Origin: Escherichia coli
GTDB taxonomy: Bacteria; Pseudomonadota; Gammaproteobacteria; Enterobacterales; Enterobacteriaceae
Assembly: GCF_003790525.1 (NCBI RefSeq)
Contig: NZ_CP033635.1
Direction: 5' to 3' (one strand)
DNA: 64,000 nt
Every line of letters begins with the position of its first letter. The first letter of the stretch is position 1. The position numbers and the translations under genes are program-made. Shown here one piece after another: positions 1-56,080 of this stretch. The notes beneath the pieces were generated by a model that saw only the letters and a list, made by a program, of their open reading frames with translations, was not told the DNA's origin and made no database searches.

Positions 1-498
1 AAAGCGTATGTGGTGGGCGAAGGCGCACTGATTCATGAACTGTACAAAGCCGGTTTCACTATTACCGATGTGAACCCTGATTTTGTGATTGTTGGCGAAA
101 CGCGTTCCTACAACTGGGACATGATGCATAAAGCAGCCTATTTCGTCGCTAACGGTGCACGCTTTATCGCCACCAACCCGGACACCCACGGGCGCGGTTT
201 TTATCCGGCCTGTGGCGCGTTGTGTGCAGGCATCGAAAAAATCTCCGGACGTAAACCGTTCTATGTTGGTAAGCCGAGTCCGTGGATCATCCGCGCAGCA
301 TTAAACAAAATGCAGGCGCATTCGGAAGAAACGGTGATTGTCGGCGATAACTTGCGCACCGACATTCTGGCGGGCTTCCAGGCGGGTCTGGAGACGATTC
401 TGGTGCTTTCTGGTGTTTCATCGCTCGACGATATCGACAGTATGCCGTTCCGCCCAAGCTGGATTTACCCGTCGGTCGCTGAAATCGACGTTATCTGA
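1..498 (+). CDS. umpH: UMP phosphatase, HAD superfamily (5'-truncated by window edge; C-terminal ~165 aa)
   Basis: ORF in frame from nt 1 to stop at 496-498; translation matches recalled NagD/UmpH C-terminus and sits upstream of asnB as in E. coli. Confidence 0.85.
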   Translation, partial: KAYVVGEGALIHELYKAGFTITDVNPDFVIVGETRSYNWDMMHKAAYFVANGARFIATNPDTHGRGFYPACGALCAGIEKISGRKPFYVGKPSPWIIRAALNKMQAHSEETVIVGDNLRTDILAGFQAGLETILVLSGVSSLDDIDSMPFRPSWIYPSVAEIDVI

Positions 499-754
499 AT
501 AGCAACCACGCCTCAGGGCGTGGTTTCTTATTTTTAGCCATCATTAAAATCATCCTATTCAATAAAACCCGCCCAAAATTATCGATCCATCAATAAATAC
601 GTCACCACACCCTATCCTTTTTCACAAATCAGCAATCGCCATTACGTTTTTTATTTTTCCACCGCCAAATCGCTTGCGCACAGTGCTGCTTTGCGGCATT
701 TTTTTAAACAAGCAAACACAACAAGCAACAAATACCAGGTTAACGGAGAAGGTT

Positions 755-2419
755 ATGTGTTCAATTTTTGGCGTATTCGATATCAAAACAGACGCAGTTG
801 AGCTGCGGAAGAAAGCCCTCGAGCTGTCACGCCTGATGCGTCATCGTGGCCCGGACTGGTCCGGTATTTATGCCAGCGATAACGCCATTCTCGCTCACGA
901 ACGTCTGTCAATTGTTGACGTTAACGCAGGGGCGCAACCTCTCTACAACCAACAAAAAACCCACGTACTGGCGGTAAACGGTGAAATCTACAACCACCAG
1001 GCACTGCGCGCCGAATATGGCGATCGTTATCAGTTCCAGACCGGATCTGACTGCGAAGTGATCCTCGCGCTGTATCAGGAAAAAGGGCCGGAATTTCTTG
1101 ACGACTTGCAGGGCATGTTTGCCTTTGCCCTGTACGACAGCGAAAAAGATGCCTACCTGATTGGTCGCGACCATCTGGGGATCATCCCACTGTATATGGG
1201 CTATGACGAACATGGTCAGCTGTATGTGGCCTCAGAAATGAAAGCCCTGGTGCCGGTATGCCGCACGATTAAAGAGTTCCCGGCGGGGAGCTATTTGTGG
1301 AGTCAGGACGGCGAAATCCGTTCTTATTATCATCGCGACTGGTTCGACTACGATGCGGTGAAAGATAACGTGACCGACAAAAACGAGCTGCGTCAGGCAC
1401 TGGAAGATTCCGTTAAAAGCCATCTGATGTCTGATGTGCCTTACGGTGTGCTGCTATCTGGTGGCCTGGATTCCTCAATCATTTCCGCTATCACCAAGAA
1501 ATACGCCGCCCGTCGCGTGGAAGATCAGGAACGCTCTGAAGCCTGGTGGCCGCAGCTGCACTCCTTTGCTGTAGGTCTGCCGGGTTCACCGGATCTGAAG
1601 GCAGCCCAGGAAGTGGCAAACCATCTGGGCACTGTGCATCATGAAATTCACTTCACTGTACAGGAAGGTCTGGACGCCATCCGCGACGTGATTTACCACA
1701 TCGAAACCTATGACGTGACGACAATCCGCGCTTCAACACCGATGTATTTAATGTCGCGTAAGATCAAGGCGATGGGCATTAAAATGGTGCTGTCCGGTGA
1801 AGGATCTGATGAAGTGTTTGGCGGTTATCTTTACTTCCACAAAGCGCCGAATGCCAAAGAACTGCATGAAGAGACGGTGCGTAAACTGCTGGCCCTGCAT
1901 ATGTATGACTGCGCGCGTGCCAACAAAGCGATGTCAGCCTGGGGCGTGGAAGCACGCGTTCCGTTCCTCGACAAAAAATTCCTCGACGTGGCGATGCGCA
2001 TTAACCCACAGGATAAAATGTGCGGTAACGGCAAAATGGAAAAACACATCCTGCGTGAATGTTTTGAAGCGTATCTGCCCGCAAGCGTGGCCTGGCGGCA
2101 GAAAGAGCAGTTCTCCGATGGCGTCGGTTACAGTTGGATCGACACCCTGAAAGAAGTGGCGGCGCAGCAGGTTTCTGATCAACAGCTGGAAACTGCCCGC
2201 TTCCGCTTCCCGTACAACACACCGACCTCAAAAGAAGCGTATCTGTACCGGGAGATCTTTGAAGAACTGTTCCCGCTTCCGAGCGCCGCTGAGTGCGTGC
2301 CGGGCGGTCCTTCCGTCGCGTGTTCTTCCGCTAAAGCGATTGAGTGGGATGAAGCGTTCAAGAAAATGGACGATCCGTCTGGTCGCGCGGTTGGTGTTCA
2401 CCAGTCGGCATATAAATAA
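755..2419 (+). CDS. asnB: asparagine synthetase B (glutamine-hydrolysing), 554 aa
   Basis: ATG at 755 preceded by GGAGAA (745-750); N-terminus MCSIFGVFDIK with catalytic Cys2; the ORF-track start at 674 is an upstream in-frame extension. Confidence 0.95.
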   Translation: MCSIFGVFDIKTDAVELRKKALELSRLMRHRGPDWSGIYASDNAILAHERLSIVDVNAGAQPLYNQQKTHVLAVNGEIYNHQALRAEYGDRYQFQTGSDCEVILALYQEKGPEFLDDLQGMFAFALYDSEKDAYLIGRDHLGIIPLYMGYDEHGQLYVASEMKALVPVCRTIKEFPAGSYLWSQDGEIRSYYHRDWFDYDAVKDNVTDKNELRQALEDSVKSHLMSDVPYGVLLSGGLDSSIISAITKKYAARRVEDQERSEAWWPQLHSFAVGLPGSPDLKAAQEVANHLGTVHHEIHFTVQEGLDAIRDVIYHIETYDVTTIRASTPMYLMSRKIKAMGIKMVLSGEGSDEVFGGYLYFHKAPNAKELHEETVRKLLALHMYDCARANKAMSAWGVEARVPFLDKKFLDVAMRINPQDKMCGNGKMEKHILRECFEAYLPASVAWRQKEQFSDGVGYSWIDTLKEVAAQQVSDQQLETARFRFPYNTPTSKEAYLYREIFEELFPLPSAAECVPGGPSVACSSAKAIEWDEAFKKMDDPSGRAVGVHQSAYK

Positions 2420-2432
2420 GACGTATAATATT

Positions 2433-2460
2433 GCCCCGGAGAAATCCGGGGCAATTTCAG
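2433..2460 (+). terminator. hairpin downstream of asnB (gccccgg-agaaat-ccggggc) followed by a weak T-run
   Basis: inverted repeat 2433-2452 read directly; T-tract is weak. Confidence 0.4.
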
Positions 2461-2730
2461 TTACTGGGGCGCTTGTTGATTCTGATATGCAGTAAGGAAA
2501 TGTTCCGGGTTTGCCACATCGCTGTTTGACAACTCATTACTGTAGGCCAGTATTTCATAGATTAATTTCCCACCACTATTGTTGAATTCCGAATTTCATC
2601 CTGTATGACAAAAGAATGGCTGTAGGGTGGGGAAAAAACACAAAGTAAACAATAATTGACGAATATAGCGCCACGCTGTTCGCAACCTAACCAAACAGTC
2701 ACTTTCGAGCAATTTTCCTTGAAAAAGAGG

Positions 2731-2760
2731 TTGACGCTGCAAGGCTCTATACGCATAATG
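2731..2760 (+). promoter_or_regulatory. candidate sigma70 promoter of the tRNA operon (TTGACG -35, 17-bp spacer, CATAAT -10, GC-rich discriminator gcgccccgc)
   Basis: motifs read in sequence ~40 bp upstream of the first tRNA; GC-rich discriminator is typical of stringently controlled stable-RNA promoters. Confidence 0.55.
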
Positions 2761-2799
2761 CGCCCCGCAACGCCGATAAGGTATCGCGAAAAAAAAGAT

Positions 2800-2876
2800 G
2801 GCTACGTAGCTCAGTTGGTTAGAGCACATCACTCATAATGATGGGGTCACAGGTTCGAATCCCGTCGTAGCCACCA
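2800..2876 (+). tRNA. metT: tRNA-Met (elongator, anticodon CAT)
   Basis: 77-nt sequence GGCTACGTAGCTCAGTTGGTTAGAGCACATCACTCATAATGATGG...GTAGCCACCA with encoded CCA. Confidence 0.97.
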
Positions 2877-2884
2877 TCTTTTTT

Positions 2885-2969
2885 GCGGGAGTGGCGAAAT
2901 TGGTAGACGCACCAGATTTAGGTTCTGGCGCCGCAAGGTGTGCGAGTTCAAGTCTCGCCTCCCGCACCA
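2885..2969 (+). tRNA. leuW: tRNA-Leu (anticodon TAG), long variable arm
   Basis: 85-nt sequence GCGGGAGTGGCGAAATTGGTAGACGCACCAGATTTAGGTTCTGG...CCCGCACCA. Confidence 0.96.
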
Positions 2970-2992
2970 TTCACCAGAAAGCGTTGTACGGA

Positions 2993-3067
2993 TGGGGTAT
3001 CGCCAAGCGGTAAGGCACCGGTTTTTGATACCGGCATTCCCTGGTTCGAATCCAGGTACCCCAGCCA
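2993..3067 (+). tRNA. glnU: tRNA-Gln (anticodon TTG)
   Basis: 75-nt TGGGGTATCGCCAAGCGGTAAGGCACCGGTTTTTGATACCGG...CCCCAGCCA. Confidence 0.96.
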
Positions 3068-3101
3068 TCTTCTTCGAGTAAGCGGTTCACCGCCCGGTTA
3101 T

Positions 3102-3176
3102 TGGGGTATCGCCAAGCGGTAAGGCACCGGTTTTTGATACCGGCATTCCCTGGTTCGAATCCAGGTACCCCAGCCA
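3102..3176 (+). tRNA. glnW: tRNA-Gln (anticodon TTG), second copy
   Basis: same 75-nt sequence as 2993-3067. Confidence 0.96.
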
Positions 3177-3191
3177 TCGAAGAAACAATCT

Positions 3192-3268
3192 GGCTACGTA
3201 GCTCAGTTGGTTAGAGCACATCACTCATAATGATGGGGTCACAGGTTCGAATCCCGTCGTAGCCACCA
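3192..3268 (+). tRNA. metU: tRNA-Met (elongator, anticodon CAT), second copy
   Basis: same 77-nt sequence as 2800-2876. Confidence 0.96.
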
Positions 3269-3316
3269 AATTCTGAATGTGTCGAATATGTTCGGCAAAT
3301 TCAAAAACCAATTTGT

Positions 3317-3391
3317 TGGGGTATCGCCAAGCGGTAAGGCACCGGATTCTGATTCCGGCATTCCGAGGTTCGAATCCTCGTACCCCAGCCA
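3317..3391 (+). tRNA. glnV: tRNA-Gln (anticodon CTG)
   Basis: 75-nt TGGGGTATCGCCAAGCGGTAAGGCACCGGATTCTGATTCCGG...CCCCAGCCA; anticodon is wild-type CTG (not the supE amber-suppressor CTA). Confidence 0.96.
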
Positions 3392-3428
3392 ATTTATTCA
3401 AGACACTTACCTTGTAAGTGCACCCAGT

Positions 3429-3503
3429 TGGGGTATCGCCAAGCGGTAAGGCACCGGATTCTGATTCCGGCATTCCGAGGTTCGAATCCTCGTACCCCAG
3501 CCA
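3429..3503 (+). tRNA. glnX: tRNA-Gln (anticodon CTG), second copy
   Basis: same 75-nt sequence as 3317-3391. Confidence 0.96.
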
Positions 3504-3507
3504 CATT

Positions 3508-3540
3508 AAAAAAGCTCGCTTCGGCGAGCTTTTTGCTTTT
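3508..3540 (+). terminator. rho-independent terminator of the tRNA operon (agctcgc-ttcg-gcgagct + TTTTTGCTTTT)
   Basis: perfect 7-bp stem with tetraloop directly followed by T-run, 5 nt after the last tRNA. Confidence 0.85.
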
Positions 3541-3718
3541 CTGCGTATATTCAATGTCGAATGCGATGTTGATACAGCTAATTTGAATTTGGCCCACGGT
3601 TCAGGGCAAACCAGCCTGGAAGCACACTCAGGCGCGGTTTTCCCCCTCACCCTAACCCTCACCCGAGGGGCGAGGGGACCGTCCGCACGCTTTTGTAGCT
3701 TTGGTATCAACCGTTACG

Positions 3719-4894
3719 CTACAACCCTAACGCATATTTCAGCGCCTGACGTTTCAACACGCCAGCACGCTCCGCCGCCATTAATCCGAGATTACGCATA
3801 AAACGCAGTGGTGGCAGATTATTGCTGAATCCGGCATAAAACAGATCCATACCGCTTTGCATAATGAAGTTATCCGCCATGCGCCGCATCTGGTAACGCT
3901 TGAGCACAGGATAACTGGCCCACGCTTCGCCGTAGCTGCGGGCGTTCACCAGAACGTCAATCAGGGCATCGACATCACGATAACCAAGATTCACCCCCTG
4001 CCCCGCCAGCGGATGGATGGTATGCGCGGCATCTCCCACCAGTGCCAATCCCGGCTGAACATACTGCAACGCATGGCGACGTGTCAGCGGAAACGCCCCC
4101 GCGGCAAGCGGTGTCACGTAACCCAGACGCGACGGGAAATGCTTCGCGATTTCCGCCTGTAGCTGCGCCATATTCATATTCTGCAACTGGCGAATGCGCG
4201 CCGGAGAGTCATACCACACCAGCGATGCCCAGTTATCAAACAACGGCAGAAACGCACGCGGTCCGTCCGGGGTAAATTGCTGCCAGGTGCTATCGCCGGG
4301 ATCGTTCTCGCACTGTACGCTAATCAACATACACGACTGTGCATACTGCCAGGCATGAACGCCAATTCCCGCCATCTGCCGCACCTGCGAATTTGCGCCG
4401 TCGGCACCAATCACCAGCTTCGCGCGGATCGTTTCACCGCCCTTCAGTTCCAGCTCCTGAAGATCATTATGGCGATGCAGCGCAATCAGCGAGCCTGGCA
4501 CACGTAACGTTACTTTCGGATGCGCTTCCAGCGCCTGCCACAGCGCCTGTTGCAGGACAGTGTTTTCCACCATGTAGCCAAGCAACGGTAGCTTAAGTTC
4601 AGCGGCGTCAAACACCACATGCGCCGTTTCCCACTCCCACGTTTCCAGTCTGCGGTAAGGATGGCAACGCATAGCCTGTACTGCATCCCAGACCCCTAAC
4701 CCTTTAAGCAATGATACCGAAGCCGCACTAATCGCCGAGATCCGCACGTCCGGCTGGCTGTCAGCGACAAACGGTGCAGGTTGGGCATGTTCGATAACCA
4801 TTACCGAAAATCCGTGCTGAGCCAGTCCCAGCGCCAGTGCGCCGCCGACCATTCCTCCGCCGACAATGGCAATTTCCGTTGGTTGATTTGTCAT
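3719..4894 (-). CDS. ubiF: 2-octaprenyl-3-methyl-6-methoxy-1,4-benzoquinol hydroxylase (FAD monooxygenase), 391 aa
   Basis: N-terminal Rossmann motif IAIVGGGMVGGALALGL; ORF may start two codons upstream at 4900 (ATGACCATG). Confidence 0.93.
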   Translation of the reverse strand: MTNQPTEIAIVGGGMVGGALALGLAQHGFSVMVIEHAQPAPFVADSQPDVRISAISAASVSLLKGLGVWDAVQAMRCHPYRRLETWEWETAHVVFDAAELKLPLLGYMVENTVLQQALWQALEAHPKVTLRVPGSLIALHRHNDLQELELKGGETIRAKLVIGADGANSQVRQMAGIGVHAWQYAQSCMLISVQCENDPGDSTWQQFTPDGPRAFLPLFDNWASLVWYDSPARIRQLQNMNMAQLQAEIAKHFPSRLGYVTPLAAGAFPLTRRHALQYVQPGLALVGDAAHTIHPLAGQGVNLGYRDVDALIDVLVNARSYGEAWASYPVLKRYQMRRMADNFIMQSGMDLFYAGFSNNLPPLRFMRNLGLMAAERAGVLKRQALKYALGL

Positions 4895-5039
4895 GGTCAA
4901 TCATCCTGTTAGCAATATGCTTTAAGTTTACAGGATTTTTACCCCCAAGGGCTGATAACGCTCATACTGGTCACAACGGCAGCAAAGCATTACACTATGC
5001 GCCCTGCATTCCTGGCTACTATTTCGCAAGAGCAAGTCG

Positions 5040-6464
5040 ATGACCAAAAAACTCCATATTAAAACCTGGGGCTGTCAGATGAACGAGTACGATTCATCGA
5101 AGATGGCCGATCTGCTGGATGCCACCCACGGCTATCAACTGACCGATGTGGCGGAAGAAGCGGATGTGCTGCTGCTGAACACCTGCTCAATCCGCGAGAA
5201 GGCTCAGGAAAAAGTCTTCCATCAGTTGGGTCGCTGGAAACTGTTAAAAGAGAAGAATCCAGACCTGATTATCGGCGTCGGCGGCTGCGTGGCATCGCAA
5301 GAAGGCGAGCACATTCGCCAGCGCGCCCACTATGTCGATATTATTTTTGGGCCGCAAACGCTGCACCGTCTGCCGGAGATGATCAACTCCGTGCGCGGCG
5401 ACCGCAGCCCGGTTGTAGATATCAGCTTCCCGGAAATCGAGAAGTTTGACCGTCTGCCGGAACCGCGCGCCGAAGGGCCGACCGCGTTTGTCTCCATCAT
5501 GGAAGGCTGCAATAAATATTGCACCTACTGCGTAGTGCCTTACACCCGTGGTGAAGAGGTAAGCCGTCCGTCCGACGATATTCTGTTTGAAATTGCCCAG
5601 CTTGCGGCTCAGGGCGTGCGTGAAGTCAACCTGCTCGGTCAGAACGTGAACGCCTGGCGTGGTGAGAACTACGACGGCACCACCGGATCGTTTGCCGACC
5701 TGCTGCGTCTGGTTGCGGCGATCGACGGGATCGATCGTATTCGCTTTACCACCAGCCATCCGATCGAATTCACCGACGATATCATCGAAGTGTACCGCGA
5801 CACGCCGGAGCTGGTGAGTTTCCTGCATCTGCCGGTACAGAGCGGTTCCGATCGCATTCTGAACCTGATGGGACGTACCCATACAGCGCTGGAGTACAAA
5901 GCGATCATCCGTAAACTGCGTGCGGCGCGTCCGGATATTCAGATCAGTTCTGACTTCATCGTTGGCTTCCCTGGCGAAACCACCGAAGACTTCGAGAAAA
6001 CGATGAAGCTGATTGCCGACGTCAATTTCGACATGAGCTACAGCTTTATCTTCTCTGCACGTCCGGGTACGCCAGCCGCCGATATGGTTGATGATGTTCC
6101 GGAAGAAGAGAAGAAGCAGCGTCTGTATATTCTGCAAGAACGTATTAATCAGCAAGCGATGGCATGGAGCCGCCGGATGCTCGGCACCACCCAGCGTATT
6201 CTGGTAGAAGGTACATCGCGTAAGAGCATCATGGAGCTTTCCGGTCGCACTGAAAATAACCGCGTGGTCAACTTTGAAGGCACGCCAGATATGATCGGTA
6301 AATTCGTCGATGTAGAAATTACCGACGTCTACCCGAACTCTCTGCGCGGTAAAGTGGTGCGTACTGAAGATGAAATGGGTCTGCGCGTGGCAGAAACGCC
6401 GGAATCGGTGATTGCCCGTACCCGCAAAGAAAACGACCTTGGCGTGGGTTATTATCAGCCGTAA
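5040..6464 (+). CDS. miaB: tRNA-i6A37 methylthiotransferase (radical SAM), 474 aa
   Basis: N-terminus [19 protein letters not shown] plus radical-SAM CNKYCTYC motif. Confidence 0.95.
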
Positions 6465-6616
6465 TTCTCAGGCCCGCCGTTCCGGTGGGCCTTGTTTTTT
6501 CTCTCTTTATCCCCATCTTTATCGCAATGCTTGCGCCTTTTTCCTGTGGCGTGAATAATTTCCTTATAGGCCGGTGAATGTTCAGCTTCCGGCGGCATAC
6601 AGATAAGAGGAACGGT

Positions 6617-7657
6617 TTGAACATAGACACTCGCGAAATCACCCTGGAGCCAGCAGACAATGCGCGTCTGTTGAGCCTGTGCGGCCCGTTTGATGACAAC
6701 ATCAAGCAGCTCGAACGCCGTCTCGGCATCGAGATCAATCGCCGCGATAACCACTTTAAACTGACCGGCCGTCCGATTTGCGTCACCGCTGCGGCAGACA
6801 TTCTGCGTAGCCTGTATGTCGATACTGCCCCGATGCGTGGTCAGATTCAGGATATCGAACCGGAACAGATCCACCTTGCGATTAAAGAAGCGCGGGTACT
6901 GGAGCAAAGCGCGGAGAGCGTGCCGGAGTACGGCAAAGCGGTCAATATCAAAACCAAACGCGGCGTAATCAAGCCGCGTACGCCAAACCAGGCGCAGTAC
7001 ATCGCCAATATTCTCGACCATGACATCACCTTCGGCGTTGGCCCGGCGGGTACGGGTAAAACCTACCTGGCAGTGGCTGCGGCAGTTGATGCCCTGGAGC
7101 GTCAGGAAATTCGCCGTATTCTGCTGACTCGTCCGGCGGTAGAAGCCGGTGAGAAACTGGGCTTCCTGCCTGGCGATTTAAGCCAGAAAGTAGACCCGTA
7201 TTTGCGCCCACTGTACGACGCGCTGTTTGAAATGCTGGGCTTTGAGAAAGTCGAGAAACTGATTGAGCGCAACGTTATTGAAGTCGCGCCGCTGGCCTAT
7301 ATGCGTGGTCGTACGCTGAACGACGCGTTTATCATTCTCGATGAGAGCCAGAACACTACCATCGAACAGATGAAGATGTTCCTGACCCGTATCGGTTTTA
7401 ACTCAAAAGCGGTTATCACCGGCGACGTCACGCAGATCGACTTGCCGCGTAATACTAAATCAGGCTTACGTCACGCTATCGAAGTGTTAGCCGATGTCGA
7501 AGAGATCAGCTTTAACTTCTTCCACAGCGAAGACGTGGTTCGTCACCCGGTGGTGGCGCGTATCGTTAACGCTTATGAAGCCTGGGAAGAAGCAGAACAA
7601 AAACGTAAAGCGGCGCTGGCAGCAGAACGCAAGCGCGAAGAACAGGAACAAAAATGA
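6617..7657 (+). CDS. ybeZ: PhoH-like ATPase, 346 aa, TTG start
   Basis: TTG at 6617 with AAGAGG 6 nt upstream; Walker [11 protein letters not shown]; ORF-track start at 6578 is an upstream extension. Confidence 0.9.
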
Positions 7658-52272: not shown

Positions 52273-53736
52273 ATGTCTTTAGCAAAAGATAATATATGGA
52301 AATTATTGGCGCCCCTGGTGGTGATGGGTGTCATGTTTCTTATCCCTGTACCTGACGGTATGCCGCCGCAGGCGTGGCATTACTTTGCAGTGTTTGTGGC
52401 AATGATTGTCGGCATGATCCTCGAGCCAATTCCGGCAACGGCGATCAGTTTTATTGCGGTTACTATTTGCGTTATTGGCAGTAATTACCTGCTCTTTGAT
52501 GCCAAAGAATTAGCTGACCCAGCGTTTAATGCGCAAAAACAGGCGCTGAAATGGGGGCTGGCAGGTTTCTCCAGCACCACCGTCTGGCTGGTGTTTGGCG
52601 CATTTATTTTTGCGCTGGGCTATGAAGTCACCGGTCTGGGCCGTCGTATCGCCCTTTTCCTGGTGAAATTCATGGGTAAACGCACGCTGACGCTGGGTTA
52701 CGCGATTGTCATTATCGACATTCTGCTGGCACCGTTTACACCGTCCAACACCGCGCGTACCGGGGGTACGGTTTTTCCGGTCATTAAAAACCTGCCGCCG
52801 CTGTTTAAATCATTCCCGAACGATCCGTCCGCGCGTCGTATTGGCGGCTATTTGATGTGGATGATGGTCATTAGTACCAGTCTGAGTTCGTCCATGTTTG
52901 TCACCGGTGCGGCACCAAACGTGCTGGGTCTGGAGTTCGTCAGCAAAATCGCAGGGATCCAGATTAGCTGGCTGCAATGGTTCCTGAGCTTCCTGCCGGT
53001 CGGTATTATTTTGCTGATCGTTGCTCCGTGGCTCTCCTATGTGCTGTACAAGCCGGAAGTGACTCACAGTGCCGAAGTGGCAGCATGGGCCGGTGATGAA
53101 CTGAAAACGATGGGTGCATTGAGCCGTAAAGAGTGGACCCTGATAGGTCTGGTGCTGCTGAGCTTAGGCTTATGGGTATTCGGCGGCGAAATGATCGACG
53201 CCACGGCGGTAGGTCTGCTGGCGGTTTCGCTGATGCTGGCCCTGCACGTTGTACCGTGGAAAGACATTACCCGCTACAACAGCGCCTGGAACACACTGGT
53301 CAACCTGGCAACGCTGGTTGTTATGGCGAACGGTTTGACCCGCTCTGGTTTTATCGACTGGTTCGCTAGCACCATGAGCACGCACCTGGAAGGCTTCTCA
53401 CCGAACGCAACGGTAATTGTACTGGTTCTGGTGTTCTACTTTGCACACTACCTGTTTGCCAGCCTGTCTGCGCACACCGCAACCATGCTGCCGGTTATTC
53501 TGGCCGTCGGTAAAGGTATTCCGGGCGTACCAATGGAACAACTGTGTATCCTGCTGGTGCTGTCTATCGGTATCATGGGCTGTCTGACGCCGTATGCAAC
53601 CGGTCCTGGGGTGATTATTTACGGCTGTGGCTATGTGAAATCAAAAGATTACTGGCGTCTTGGCGCAATCTTCGGGGTGATTTACATCTCTATGCTGCTG
53701 TTGGTTGGCTGGCCGATTCTCGCCATGTGGAACTAA
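52273..53736 (+). CDS. citT: citrate:succinate antiporter (DASS family), 487 aa
   Basis: matches recalled CitT; polytopic membrane protein. Confidence 0.95.
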   Translation: MSLAKDNIWKLLAPLVVMGVMFLIPVPDGMPPQAWHYFAVFVAMIVGMILEPIPATAISFIAVTICVIGSNYLLFDAKELADPAFNAQKQALKWGLAGFSSTTVWLVFGAFIFALGYEVTGLGRRIALFLVKFMGKRTLTLGYAIVIIDILLAPFTPSNTARTGGTVFPVIKNLPPLFKSFPNDPSARRIGGYLMWMMVISTSLSSSMFVTGAAPNVLGLEFVSKIAGIQISWLQWFLSFLPVGIILLIVAPWLSYVLYKPEVTHSAEVAAWAGDELKTMGALSRKEWTLIGLVLLSLGLWVFGGEMIDATAVGLLAVSLMLALHVVPWKDITRYNSAWNTLVNLATLVVMANGLTRSGFIDWFASTMSTHLEGFSPNATVIVLVLVFYFAHYLFASLSAHTATMLPVILAVGKGIPGVPMEQLCILLVLSIGIMGCLTPYATGPGVIIYGCGYVKSKDYWRLGAIFGVIYISMLLLVGWPILAMWN

Positions 53737-54656: not shown

Positions 54657-54885
54657 TCCTCTGATTTACAAAACACGCTAATTCGTCTTCCATAAACCAT
54701 GACGATTAAGATTTATACATAATGCGCTACATTGAGGAATTCCCTGAATGTGACGCAAATCACTTCAAAGAGTGAGCAACAGTCAGTATCATCATGTGAG
54801 TTAAACCCTCGCCGCCTGACGGTGAGGGTTTTCTTTTGGGTATGTTTATCTGCGACACTCGCAGTACCGACGACATGGAGTAAAA

Positions 54886-55296
54886 ATGTCCAGACCAACT
54901 ATCATCATTAACGACCTGGATGCCGAACGCATCGATATTCTGCTGGAGCAACCCGCCTATGCTGGTTTGCCAATCGCCGACGCGTTAAACGCAGAGTTGG
55001 ATCGCGCCCAAATGTGTTCGCCAGAAGAGATGCCACACGACGTGGTGACAATGAACAGCCGGGTTAAATTCCGCAATCTTAGCGATGGCGAAGTGCGTGT
55101 GCGCACGCTGGTGTATCCGGCAAAAATGACCGACAGCAATACTCAGCTTTCCGTTATGGCTCCGGTAGGTGCCGCACTGCTGGGGCTGCGCGTTGGCGAT
55201 TCCATTCACTGGGAACTGCCGGGCGGCGTTGCAACCCACCTTGAAGTGCTGGAACTCGAATACCAGCCAGAAGCTGCTGGCGATTACCTGCTTTAA
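54886..55296 (+). CDS. rnk: regulator of nucleoside diphosphate kinase (GreA/GreB-like C-terminal domain), 136 aa
   Basis: full-length match to recalled Rnk. Confidence 0.93.
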
Positions 55297-55330
55297 TCCC
55301 ATCTGCACAAGCGATAACTCGCTTTGCCCA

Positions 55331-55356
55331 GAGGATGCACTCGCATCCTCTTTCCG
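55331..55356 (+). terminator. hairpin after rnk (gaggatgc-actc-gcatcctc + TTTCC)
   Basis: perfect 8-bp stem, short T-run. Confidence 0.5.
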
Positions 55357-55438
55357 CTCAAATATCAACCAGATTTATCATTTTGCTCTTAAGCGCAGCA
55401 TTCTAATCTGAACTGGTTATTCATCTGCGGAACCTCAT

Positions 55439-55528
55439 ATGAGCGAAGCTCTCGGTATCACTGCATTTTATATATTCATAGCAGCAATTATTGTTGCTGC
55501 AGTGCTATACCTTGAACAACGCTGGTAG
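55439..55528 (+). CDS. candidate small hydrophobic protein, 29 aa (MSEALGITAFYIFIAAIIVAAVLYLEQRW)
   Basis: ATG...TAG ORF below the ORF-track cutoff; single predicted TM helix; weak Shine-Dalgarno (gcggaa); lies between rnk terminator and uspG promoter. Confidence 0.3.
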   Translation: MSEALGITAFYIFIAAIIVAAVLYLEQRW

Positions 55529-55651
55529 CGCCTGGTTTTATTTATTTTCCAGCTCAATAGCAAATTCAGATCAAATCAGCCTCGCAAATCATAGATTCAT
55601 AACCAATAATGTGCTGTTATGTATACATGCAAAAACAAGGAGAGAATGCTT

Positions 55652-56080
55652 ATGTACAAAACAATCATCATGCCAGTGGATGTTTTCGAAATGGAATTGA
55701 GCGACAAAGCGGTTCGCCACGCTGAATTCCTCGCCCAGGATGACGGAGTTATTCATCTACTTCACGTACTACCGGGGTCAGCCAGCCTGAGCCTGCACCG
55801 TTTTGCCGCTGATGTACGTCGTTTTGAAGAGCATCTGCAACATGAAGCAGAAGAACGTCTGCAAACGATGGTCAGCCACTTCACCATCGATCCTTCCCGC
55901 ATTAAGCAACATGTCCGTTTTGGTAGTGTGCGGGATGAAGTTAACGAGTTAGCGAAAGAACTTGATGCAGATGTAGTAGTGATTGGTTCGCGTAACCCAT
56001 CAATTTCAACTCATCTGTTGGGTTCTAACGCCTCGAGCGTGATCCGCCACGCCAATTTGCCGGTGCTGGTTGTGCGTTAA
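55652..56080 (+). CDS. uspG: universal stress protein G, 142 aa
   Basis: ATG 55652 with AAGGAGA 8 nt upstream; matches recalled UspG. Confidence 0.93.

Follow-up and report, generated by a model that had tools for sequence, protein, structure and literature searches.

A short rnk-uspG interval without ybdR, carried by one third of finished Escherichia coli genomes

The question raised by this locus is whether a gene has been lost from between rnk and uspG in one E. coli strain, or whether the short interval found there is a form of the locus in its own right. In K-12, the gene order is rnk-yldA-ybdR-uspG, with ybdR on the opposite strand and 1689 bp between rnk and uspG (b0607-b0610 region). 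The product of ybdR is an uncharacterized Zn-dependent medium-chain alcohol dehydrogenase, the best NCBIfam match of which is glutathione-independent formaldehyde dehydrogenase, at a score far under the cut-off. An earlier note on the 64-kb stretch of DNA analyzed here (the window) had correctly stated the position of ybdR in K-12, had seen that rnk and uspG are only 355 bp apart with no dehydrogenase-like gene nearby, and had suggested either a strain-specific deletion or a different ancestral arrangement. The spacer is exactly as described, occupying positions 55297-55651 between the rnk stop (55296) and the uspG start (55652). Regarding its origin, we are confident that the rnk-uspG interval is polymorphic across the species, with two alleles, that the window has the short one (S-type), and that the difference reflects replacement of a whole cassette with no deletion in this strain.

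From rnk to uspG, the window matches E. coli SMS-3-5 (NC_010498.1) at 100% identity, and in that record the order is annotated as rnk-yldA-uspG. The features of the locus are as follows:

54886-55296 (stop codon included), + strand: rnk, nucleoside diphosphate kinase regulator, from the open reading frame and RefSeq annotation
55330-55354, + strand: terminator-like hairpin past rnk, AGAGGATGC-ACTC-GCATCCTCT and then TTT, an inverted repeat with 9/9 positions complementary (stem and loop at 55330-55351)
55358-55633 (276 bp): S-type-specific segment; BLASTN homology to K-12 stops at 55357 and restarts at 55634
55439-55528, + strand: yldA, S allele, 90 bp encoding the 29-aa MSEALGITAFYIFIAAIIVAAVLYLEQRW, a predicted small membrane protein (RefSeq CDS WP_001287361.1)
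55570-55651, + strand: S-class uspG upstream region, presumed to hold the promoter, 5'UTR, and RBS AAGGAGAG; unrelated to the K-12 ybdR-uspG intergenic region
55652-56080, + strand: uspG, universal stress protein G, from RefSeq annotation of the identical SMS-3-5 sequence; right flank

The reading of this interval as only a spacer was therefore right about its length and wrong about its emptiness, given the annotated yldA. Rnk scores 201.6 bits against NCBIfam NF004396 (cut-off 109) and UspG 312.9 bits against NF012000 (cut-off 189); rnk, which forms the left conserved flank, is 99.3% identical to the K-12 gene. Directly 5' of rnk, at 54732-54840 (+), the Rfam model rnk_leader (RF01771) also matches over its full length, with 124.9 bits where the gathering score is 50. 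The hairpin past rnk is the last block common to both E. coli haplotypes, is kept across genera in alignments of Kosakonia, Citrobacter, and Escherichia, and is likely to serve as the rnk terminator. A consensus promoter and terminator scan of 55200-55720 made no calls, and the hairpin surfaced through a repeat finder alone; it escaped the terminator scan because its T-run is short. The uspG promoter presumably lies within 55570-55651, where no consensus sigma-70 site was found.

Three other candidate features of the spacer were set aside. A 23-aa open reading frame at 55335-55406 (+), MHSHPLSAQISTRFIILLLSAAF (MHSHPLSAQ...), begins inside the rnk hairpin and recurs in relatives, and it is probably not a gene because its conserved N-terminus is the conserved hairpin read as codons. 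An Rfam search of the spacer returned no family, and its lone sub-threshold snoRNA match (27 bits, with 45 required) was attributed to chance, so that a structured RNA was rejected. Lastly, an imperfect 22-nt inverted repeat, 77% complementary, brackets yldA (55406-55427 and 55550-55571); a MITE-like insert carrying yldA was rejected as an explanation, since the repeat probably arose by chance and its right arm is degraded in E. albertii.

A comparison of 54886-56080 with K-12 by BLASTN placed the breakpoints at 55357/55358 and 55633/55634. Identity is 99.2% up to 55357, just past the hairpin, and the two sequences become homologous again ~17 bp short of the uspG ATG, at 55634. Between these points, 276 bp stand in place of 1611 bp of K-12 sequence, comprising the K allele of yldA, ybdR, and the ybdR-uspG intergenic region, and there is no BLASTN similarity between the two. 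In agreement with the earlier reading, a tblastn search with K-12 YbdR reached a best E value of 0.36 across all 64 kb of the window and gave no matches inside 55297-55651. The S and K alleles of yldA are homologous in forced global alignment, weakly so at the DNA level, where BLASTN cannot align them, and the uspG upstream regions of the window and K-12 share only ~65% identity when forced into global alignment.

The uspG gene of the window is 93% identical to that of K-12 at the DNA level, with SNPs clustered at 55637-55711 and 55942-56020. Judged from the sequences, such clustering is a sign that recombination has made the right edge of the block mosaic. Strain 042 has S-type SNPs in uspG only up to 55981 and is K-like beyond. 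The 3' patch of uspG in K-12 resembles that of the non-coli Escherichia SCPM-O-B-8794, and the SMS-3-5 patch resembles that of Escherichia sp. MOD1-EC7003. On the other side of the locus, citT (52585-53385) has patches that are just 81-87% identical to K-12 amid sequence that is 97-100% identical, which looks like another recombination mosaic.

The frequency of each form was assessed in 5426 complete E. coli genomes, all but four of which (5422) have some match to the rnk-uspG region. The contiguous short arrangement (at least 80% of the query) was found in 1816 genomes at 95-100% identity; the 276-bp S segment occurs in 1817 and the 1611-bp K-12 segment in 3605, and these two counts sum to the 5422 genomes with an rnk region. 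When K-12 ybdR alone was used as the query in a sensitive blastn search (11-base words, E <= 1e-5), 3605 genomes matched, and in the remaining 1821 the same search gave no match to ybdR-like DNA on chromosome or plasmids. Because the number of genomes with ybdR equals the number with the K segment, genomes with the short haplotype have no ybdR-like DNA anywhere; the 1821 ybdR-negative genomes must include SMS-3-5, since it carries that haplotype. Thus, the K-12 order is not the norm for E. coli at this site, and one third of finished genomes are without ybdR.

Among well-known strains, the short form is found in SMS-3-5, 042, LF82, ATCC 25922, and an O25b:H4-ST131 isolate, and the long form in K-12, TG1, IAI1, and O157:H7. 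We take 042, SMS-3-5, LF82, and ATCC 25922 to be members of phylogroups D, F, and B2, which branch early, and the long-form strains to belong to A, E, and B1. If these assignments are correct, the short/long split would match the deepest phylogroup split of the species. The difference between the two forms is an ordinary presence/absence polymorphism that is already annotated in genomes; we found no description of a ybdR presence/absence polymorphism in the literature on ybdR/b0608. Departures from the two main forms also exist. E. coli HS-02, a rare variant with a 278-bp spacer, is S-type and has no annotated yldA, only 56% of the S segment being matched. On a 300-kb plasmid of E. coli MSB1_9D (NZ_LR890350.1), positions 1-7100 hold a piece of chromosome resembling that of Citrobacter, in the order citT-rna-(two extra genes)-rnk-uspG and with a copy of IS26 at its end; yldA and ybdR are both missing from it, and its rnk shares 81% identity with that of E. 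coli.

Relatives were sampled with Rnk as the query, at one genome per species, and the resulting 80 loci were scored for Rnk, YldA, YbdR, UspG, and AhpF. Across the Enterobacteriaceae, the rnk-uspG interval has four states, defined by the presence or absence of yldA and of ybdR:

State A, rnk-uspG, 146-202 bp: Kluyvera, most Kosakonia, the C. freundii complex, Trabulsiella, and Yokenella
State B, rnk-yldA-uspG, ~350-510 bp: S-type E. coli, E. albertii, Escherichia sp. MOD1-EC7003, "E. coli" SCPM-O-B-8794, several Citrobacter, Lelliottia, some Enterobacter, and Phytobacter
State C, rnk-yldA-ybdR-uspG, ~1650-1790 bp: K-12, C. sedlakii, many Enterobacter, and Pseudenterobacter
State D, rnk-ybdR-uspG, ~1510-1630 bp: Salmonella, Silvania, Intestinirhabdus, and some Enterobacter and Leclercia

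Sampling of Escherichia other than E. coli consisted of E. albertii, MOD1-EC7003, and SCPM-O-B-8794, with E. fergusonii and the named cryptic species falling outside the sample. Despite its label, SCPM-O-B-8794 belongs to a non-coli Escherichia lineage, given that its ahpF is just 95% and its rna just 88% identical to K-12. All three genomes are S-type, and their YldA is 97-100% identical to that of the window.

The 100 bp 5' of uspG fall into two classes. The S class includes the window, E. albertii, the other Escherichia genomes, Citrobacter R56, and the C. freundii complex, and the K class includes K-12, C. sedlakii (81% identical to K-12), the C. amalonaticus group, and Salmonella (74%), with Enterobacter nearer to the K class. 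The class signature runs on into the first 36 bp of uspG, the K form of which is common to Salmonella, C. sedlakii, and Enterobacter. For yldA, identity is 78% between the S allele and the corresponding genes of Citrobacter sp. R56, NCU1, and Awk4, and 78-80% between the K allele and those of C. koseri and the C. amalonaticus group. The ybdR gene of K-12 is 80-81% identical at the DNA level to the copies at the same site in Salmonella and C. sedlakii. Each of S and K thus has a counterpart in Citrobacter or Salmonella at ~78-81% identity, which makes each class about as old as the separation of the genera; as the two cannot be aligned with one another, the S/K split appears to be older still and to predate the divergence of Escherichia and Citrobacter. 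The depth of this split and the occurrence of both classes in more than one genus are mildly unusual aspects of an otherwise ordinary polymorphism.

Together, these comparisons show two versions of the interval. The S-type version (355 bp) consists of the probable rnk terminator, the S allele of yldA, and the S-class uspG upstream region, without ybdR; the K-type version (1689 bp) consists of the probable rnk terminator, the K allele of yldA, a convergent ybdR, and a divergent control region between ybdR and uspG. They have only the flanks in common, namely rnk with its terminator and uspG from ~17 bp before the ATG, and the cassette was presumably swapped by homologous recombination in these conserved flanks. 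It is the lack of alignable sequence between shared flanks that argues for replacement of the whole cassette, and not for a deletion in this strain. S-type strains would consequently have no Zn-dependent dehydrogenase YbdR and a diverged predicted YldA, and uspG would probably be driven from a different upstream region. A convergent ybdR-yldA transcript overlap is listed for K-12 (PMC12288877), and from gene content S-type strains would be expected to lack it.

The suggestion of a different ancestral arrangement holds in the sense of an old alternative haplotype; which of the two versions is the older one in Escherichia is a separate matter. On grounds of parsimony, we lean slightly toward the S-type being older within Escherichia, with the K-type fixed on the stem of phylogroups A/B1/E. 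Speaking against this polarity, ybdR is clearly ancient at this site in the family, and the K-type could be an ancestral state that was vertically retained. Relative to Salmonella and C. sedlakii, the genes flanking the site in K-12 are 82-83% (rnk), 78-80% (uspG), and 83-86% (ahpF) identical. Because ybdR has diverged to the same degree as these core genes, the K-class uspG signature is widespread, and no near donor was found, vertical retention is possible. When YbdR was used in a protein search for a possible source of the K-type, the best match outside E. coli was Salmonella at 91% identity, with none above that. One YbdR cluster at 94% identity (P0007) was rejected as a donor: it is a K-type locus of E. 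coli itself, in which ybdR has lost 51 bp in frame. This allele, found in GCA_012871855.1, encodes 395 aa where the usual one encodes 412 and is present on at least 24 contigs.

The strongest alternative is that the long K-type is ancestral in E. coli and Escherichia, and that the S-type arose by an ancient loss of ybdR elsewhere, followed by recombination into Escherichia, including B2/D/F strains of E. coli. We consider this quite possible, although we would not bet on it. In its favor, Salmonella, C. sedlakii, Enterobacter, Leclercia, Silvania, and Intestinirhabdus all carry ybdR at this position, as diverged from K-12 as the core genome is, and the K-class uspG upstream signature is the more widely distributed one outside Escherichia; loss of ybdR giving rise to a short haplotype is documented in Enterobacter. 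However, all three sampled non-coli Escherichia are S-type, as are the E. coli strains that we take to be early-branching (D, F, and B2), so that this explanation needs either several introgressions or a single very old one.

A recent deletion of ybdR from a K-12-like ancestor, specific to a strain or clone, was one of the two origins first suggested, and the data refute it. K-12 does have ybdR at the same position, and such losses do occur. For instance, E. coli HH97, a rare variant, has a K-type yldA (its reading frame lengthened), a 192-bp ybdR pseudogene fragment, and a K-type uspG. In Enterobacter asburiae, TN152 (no ybdR) aligns with INSAq146 (ybdR present) through yldA and ~50 bp of the ybdR 3' end, and the alignment restarts ~65 bp 5' of uspG; Citrobacter sp. 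HRGM0066 has a K-class haplotype with a clean ybdR indel relative to K-12. The window bears no signature of a deletion like that in HH97, TN152, or HRGM0066. It has no ybdR remnant and has 276 bp of non-K-12 sequence at the junction, and the search for direct repeats or microhomology at the borders of the segment, another check put forward at the outset, found none, the only direct repeat being an 18-nt, 78% pair inside the segment. Further, an arrangement in which rnk and uspG are adjacent across a spacer of about 350 bp is shared, as 1816 of the 5426 genomes show, by a large part of the species at 95-100% identity, and by E. albertii and two other non-coli Escherichia; rnk and uspG lying next to each other at such a distance in reference genomes is what the earlier note had named as refuting its suggestion, and on that ground too a deletion fails.

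Relocation of ybdR to a site outside the window has as little to commend it. Many Enterobacteriaceae without ybdR at this site do have a 397-aa YbdR homologue with ~80% identity (Kluyvera, Kosakonia, Yokenella, C. amalonaticus, and Phytobacter, which have no ybdR between rnk and uspG, and also Klebsiella), but in E. coli the sensitive blastn matches to ybdR are as many as the long haplotypes (3605) and the other 1821 genomes have none, including those with the short haplotype. Refuted as well, and least credible of all, is a collapse of the region through an assembly or sequence artefact, in favor of which we could count nothing; the same structure recurs in other species and across 1816 E. 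coli genomes, each finished independently.

The gene that remains in the interval belongs to a recognizable family. The 55439-55528 reading frame has the attributes of YldA, being a 29-aa hydrophobic protein encoded just 3' of rnk on the same strand, with a C-terminal AVLYLE motif. Both alleles clear the threshold of NCBIfam NF041476 (Pfam PF23689; cut-off 45), at 59 bits for S and 57.9 bits for K-12, with 52-54% protein identity between MSEALGITAFYIFIAAIIVAAVLYLEQRW and the K-12 form MAEAFYILIGFLIMAAIIVMAVLYLENHS. Of 36 genomes with YldA, 35 encode a 29-aa form and one, Pseudenterobacter, a 33-aa form, and M1, E3, A21, V22, L25, and E26 are invariant in more than 20 species. In the annotation table of PMC6001520, K-12 yldA is included with its sequence among new E. 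coli small-protein genes. The S-allele product is predicted to be a small membrane protein.

The prevalence of the short form, which includes a pathogen-associated ST131 isolate, LF82, and 042, calls for caution in carrying K-12 data on uspG regulation, ybdR-yldA transcript overlap, or YldA function over to B2/D/F strains. The locus also provides a clean two-state marker, one that seems to track the deep division between phylogroups. A more ambitious idea, which we advance only as a speculation that may well be wrong, is that the rnk-uspG interval is an ancient two-class cassette, with alternative yldA alleles, unrelated uspG control regions, and ybdR in many K-class genomes. If so, balancing selection or recurrent exchange between genera would have maintained both classes in more than one genus, and phylogroups B2/D/F would regulate uspG and yldA differently from A/B1/E.

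Set beside known systems, the window resembles the K-12 locus in its flanks (citT, rna, and rnk with its terminator on one side; uspG, ahpF, and ahpC on the other) and in having a 29-aa yldA ~140 bp 3' of rnk on the same strand. It differs in lacking ybdR, in the low identity of its YldA, in its interval of 355 versus 1689 bp, and in an unrelated uspG upstream region. HH97 and TN152 are like the window in that rnk lies near uspG with no intact ybdR, but in both, yldA and the region before uspG are still those of relatives that have ybdR, and a ybdR fragment persists; the window has neither K-type flanks nor a fragment. At the protein level, YldA can be compared with YoaI (NCBIfam NF041475), another single-helix protein of ~30 aa; YldA scores 30 bits on the YoaI model, below its cut-off of 45 bits, and has an equivalog model of its own, whereas YoaI is encoded at another locus. 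The closest counterparts of the window are E. albertii, MOD1-EC7003, SCPM-O-B-8794, and Citrobacter R56, NCU1, and Awk4, which have the same gene order, a spacer of 353-357 bp, and the same class of uspG upstream region. YldA of the three Citrobacter is 69-76% identical to that of the window, and the differences throughout this group amount to ordinary between-species divergence only.
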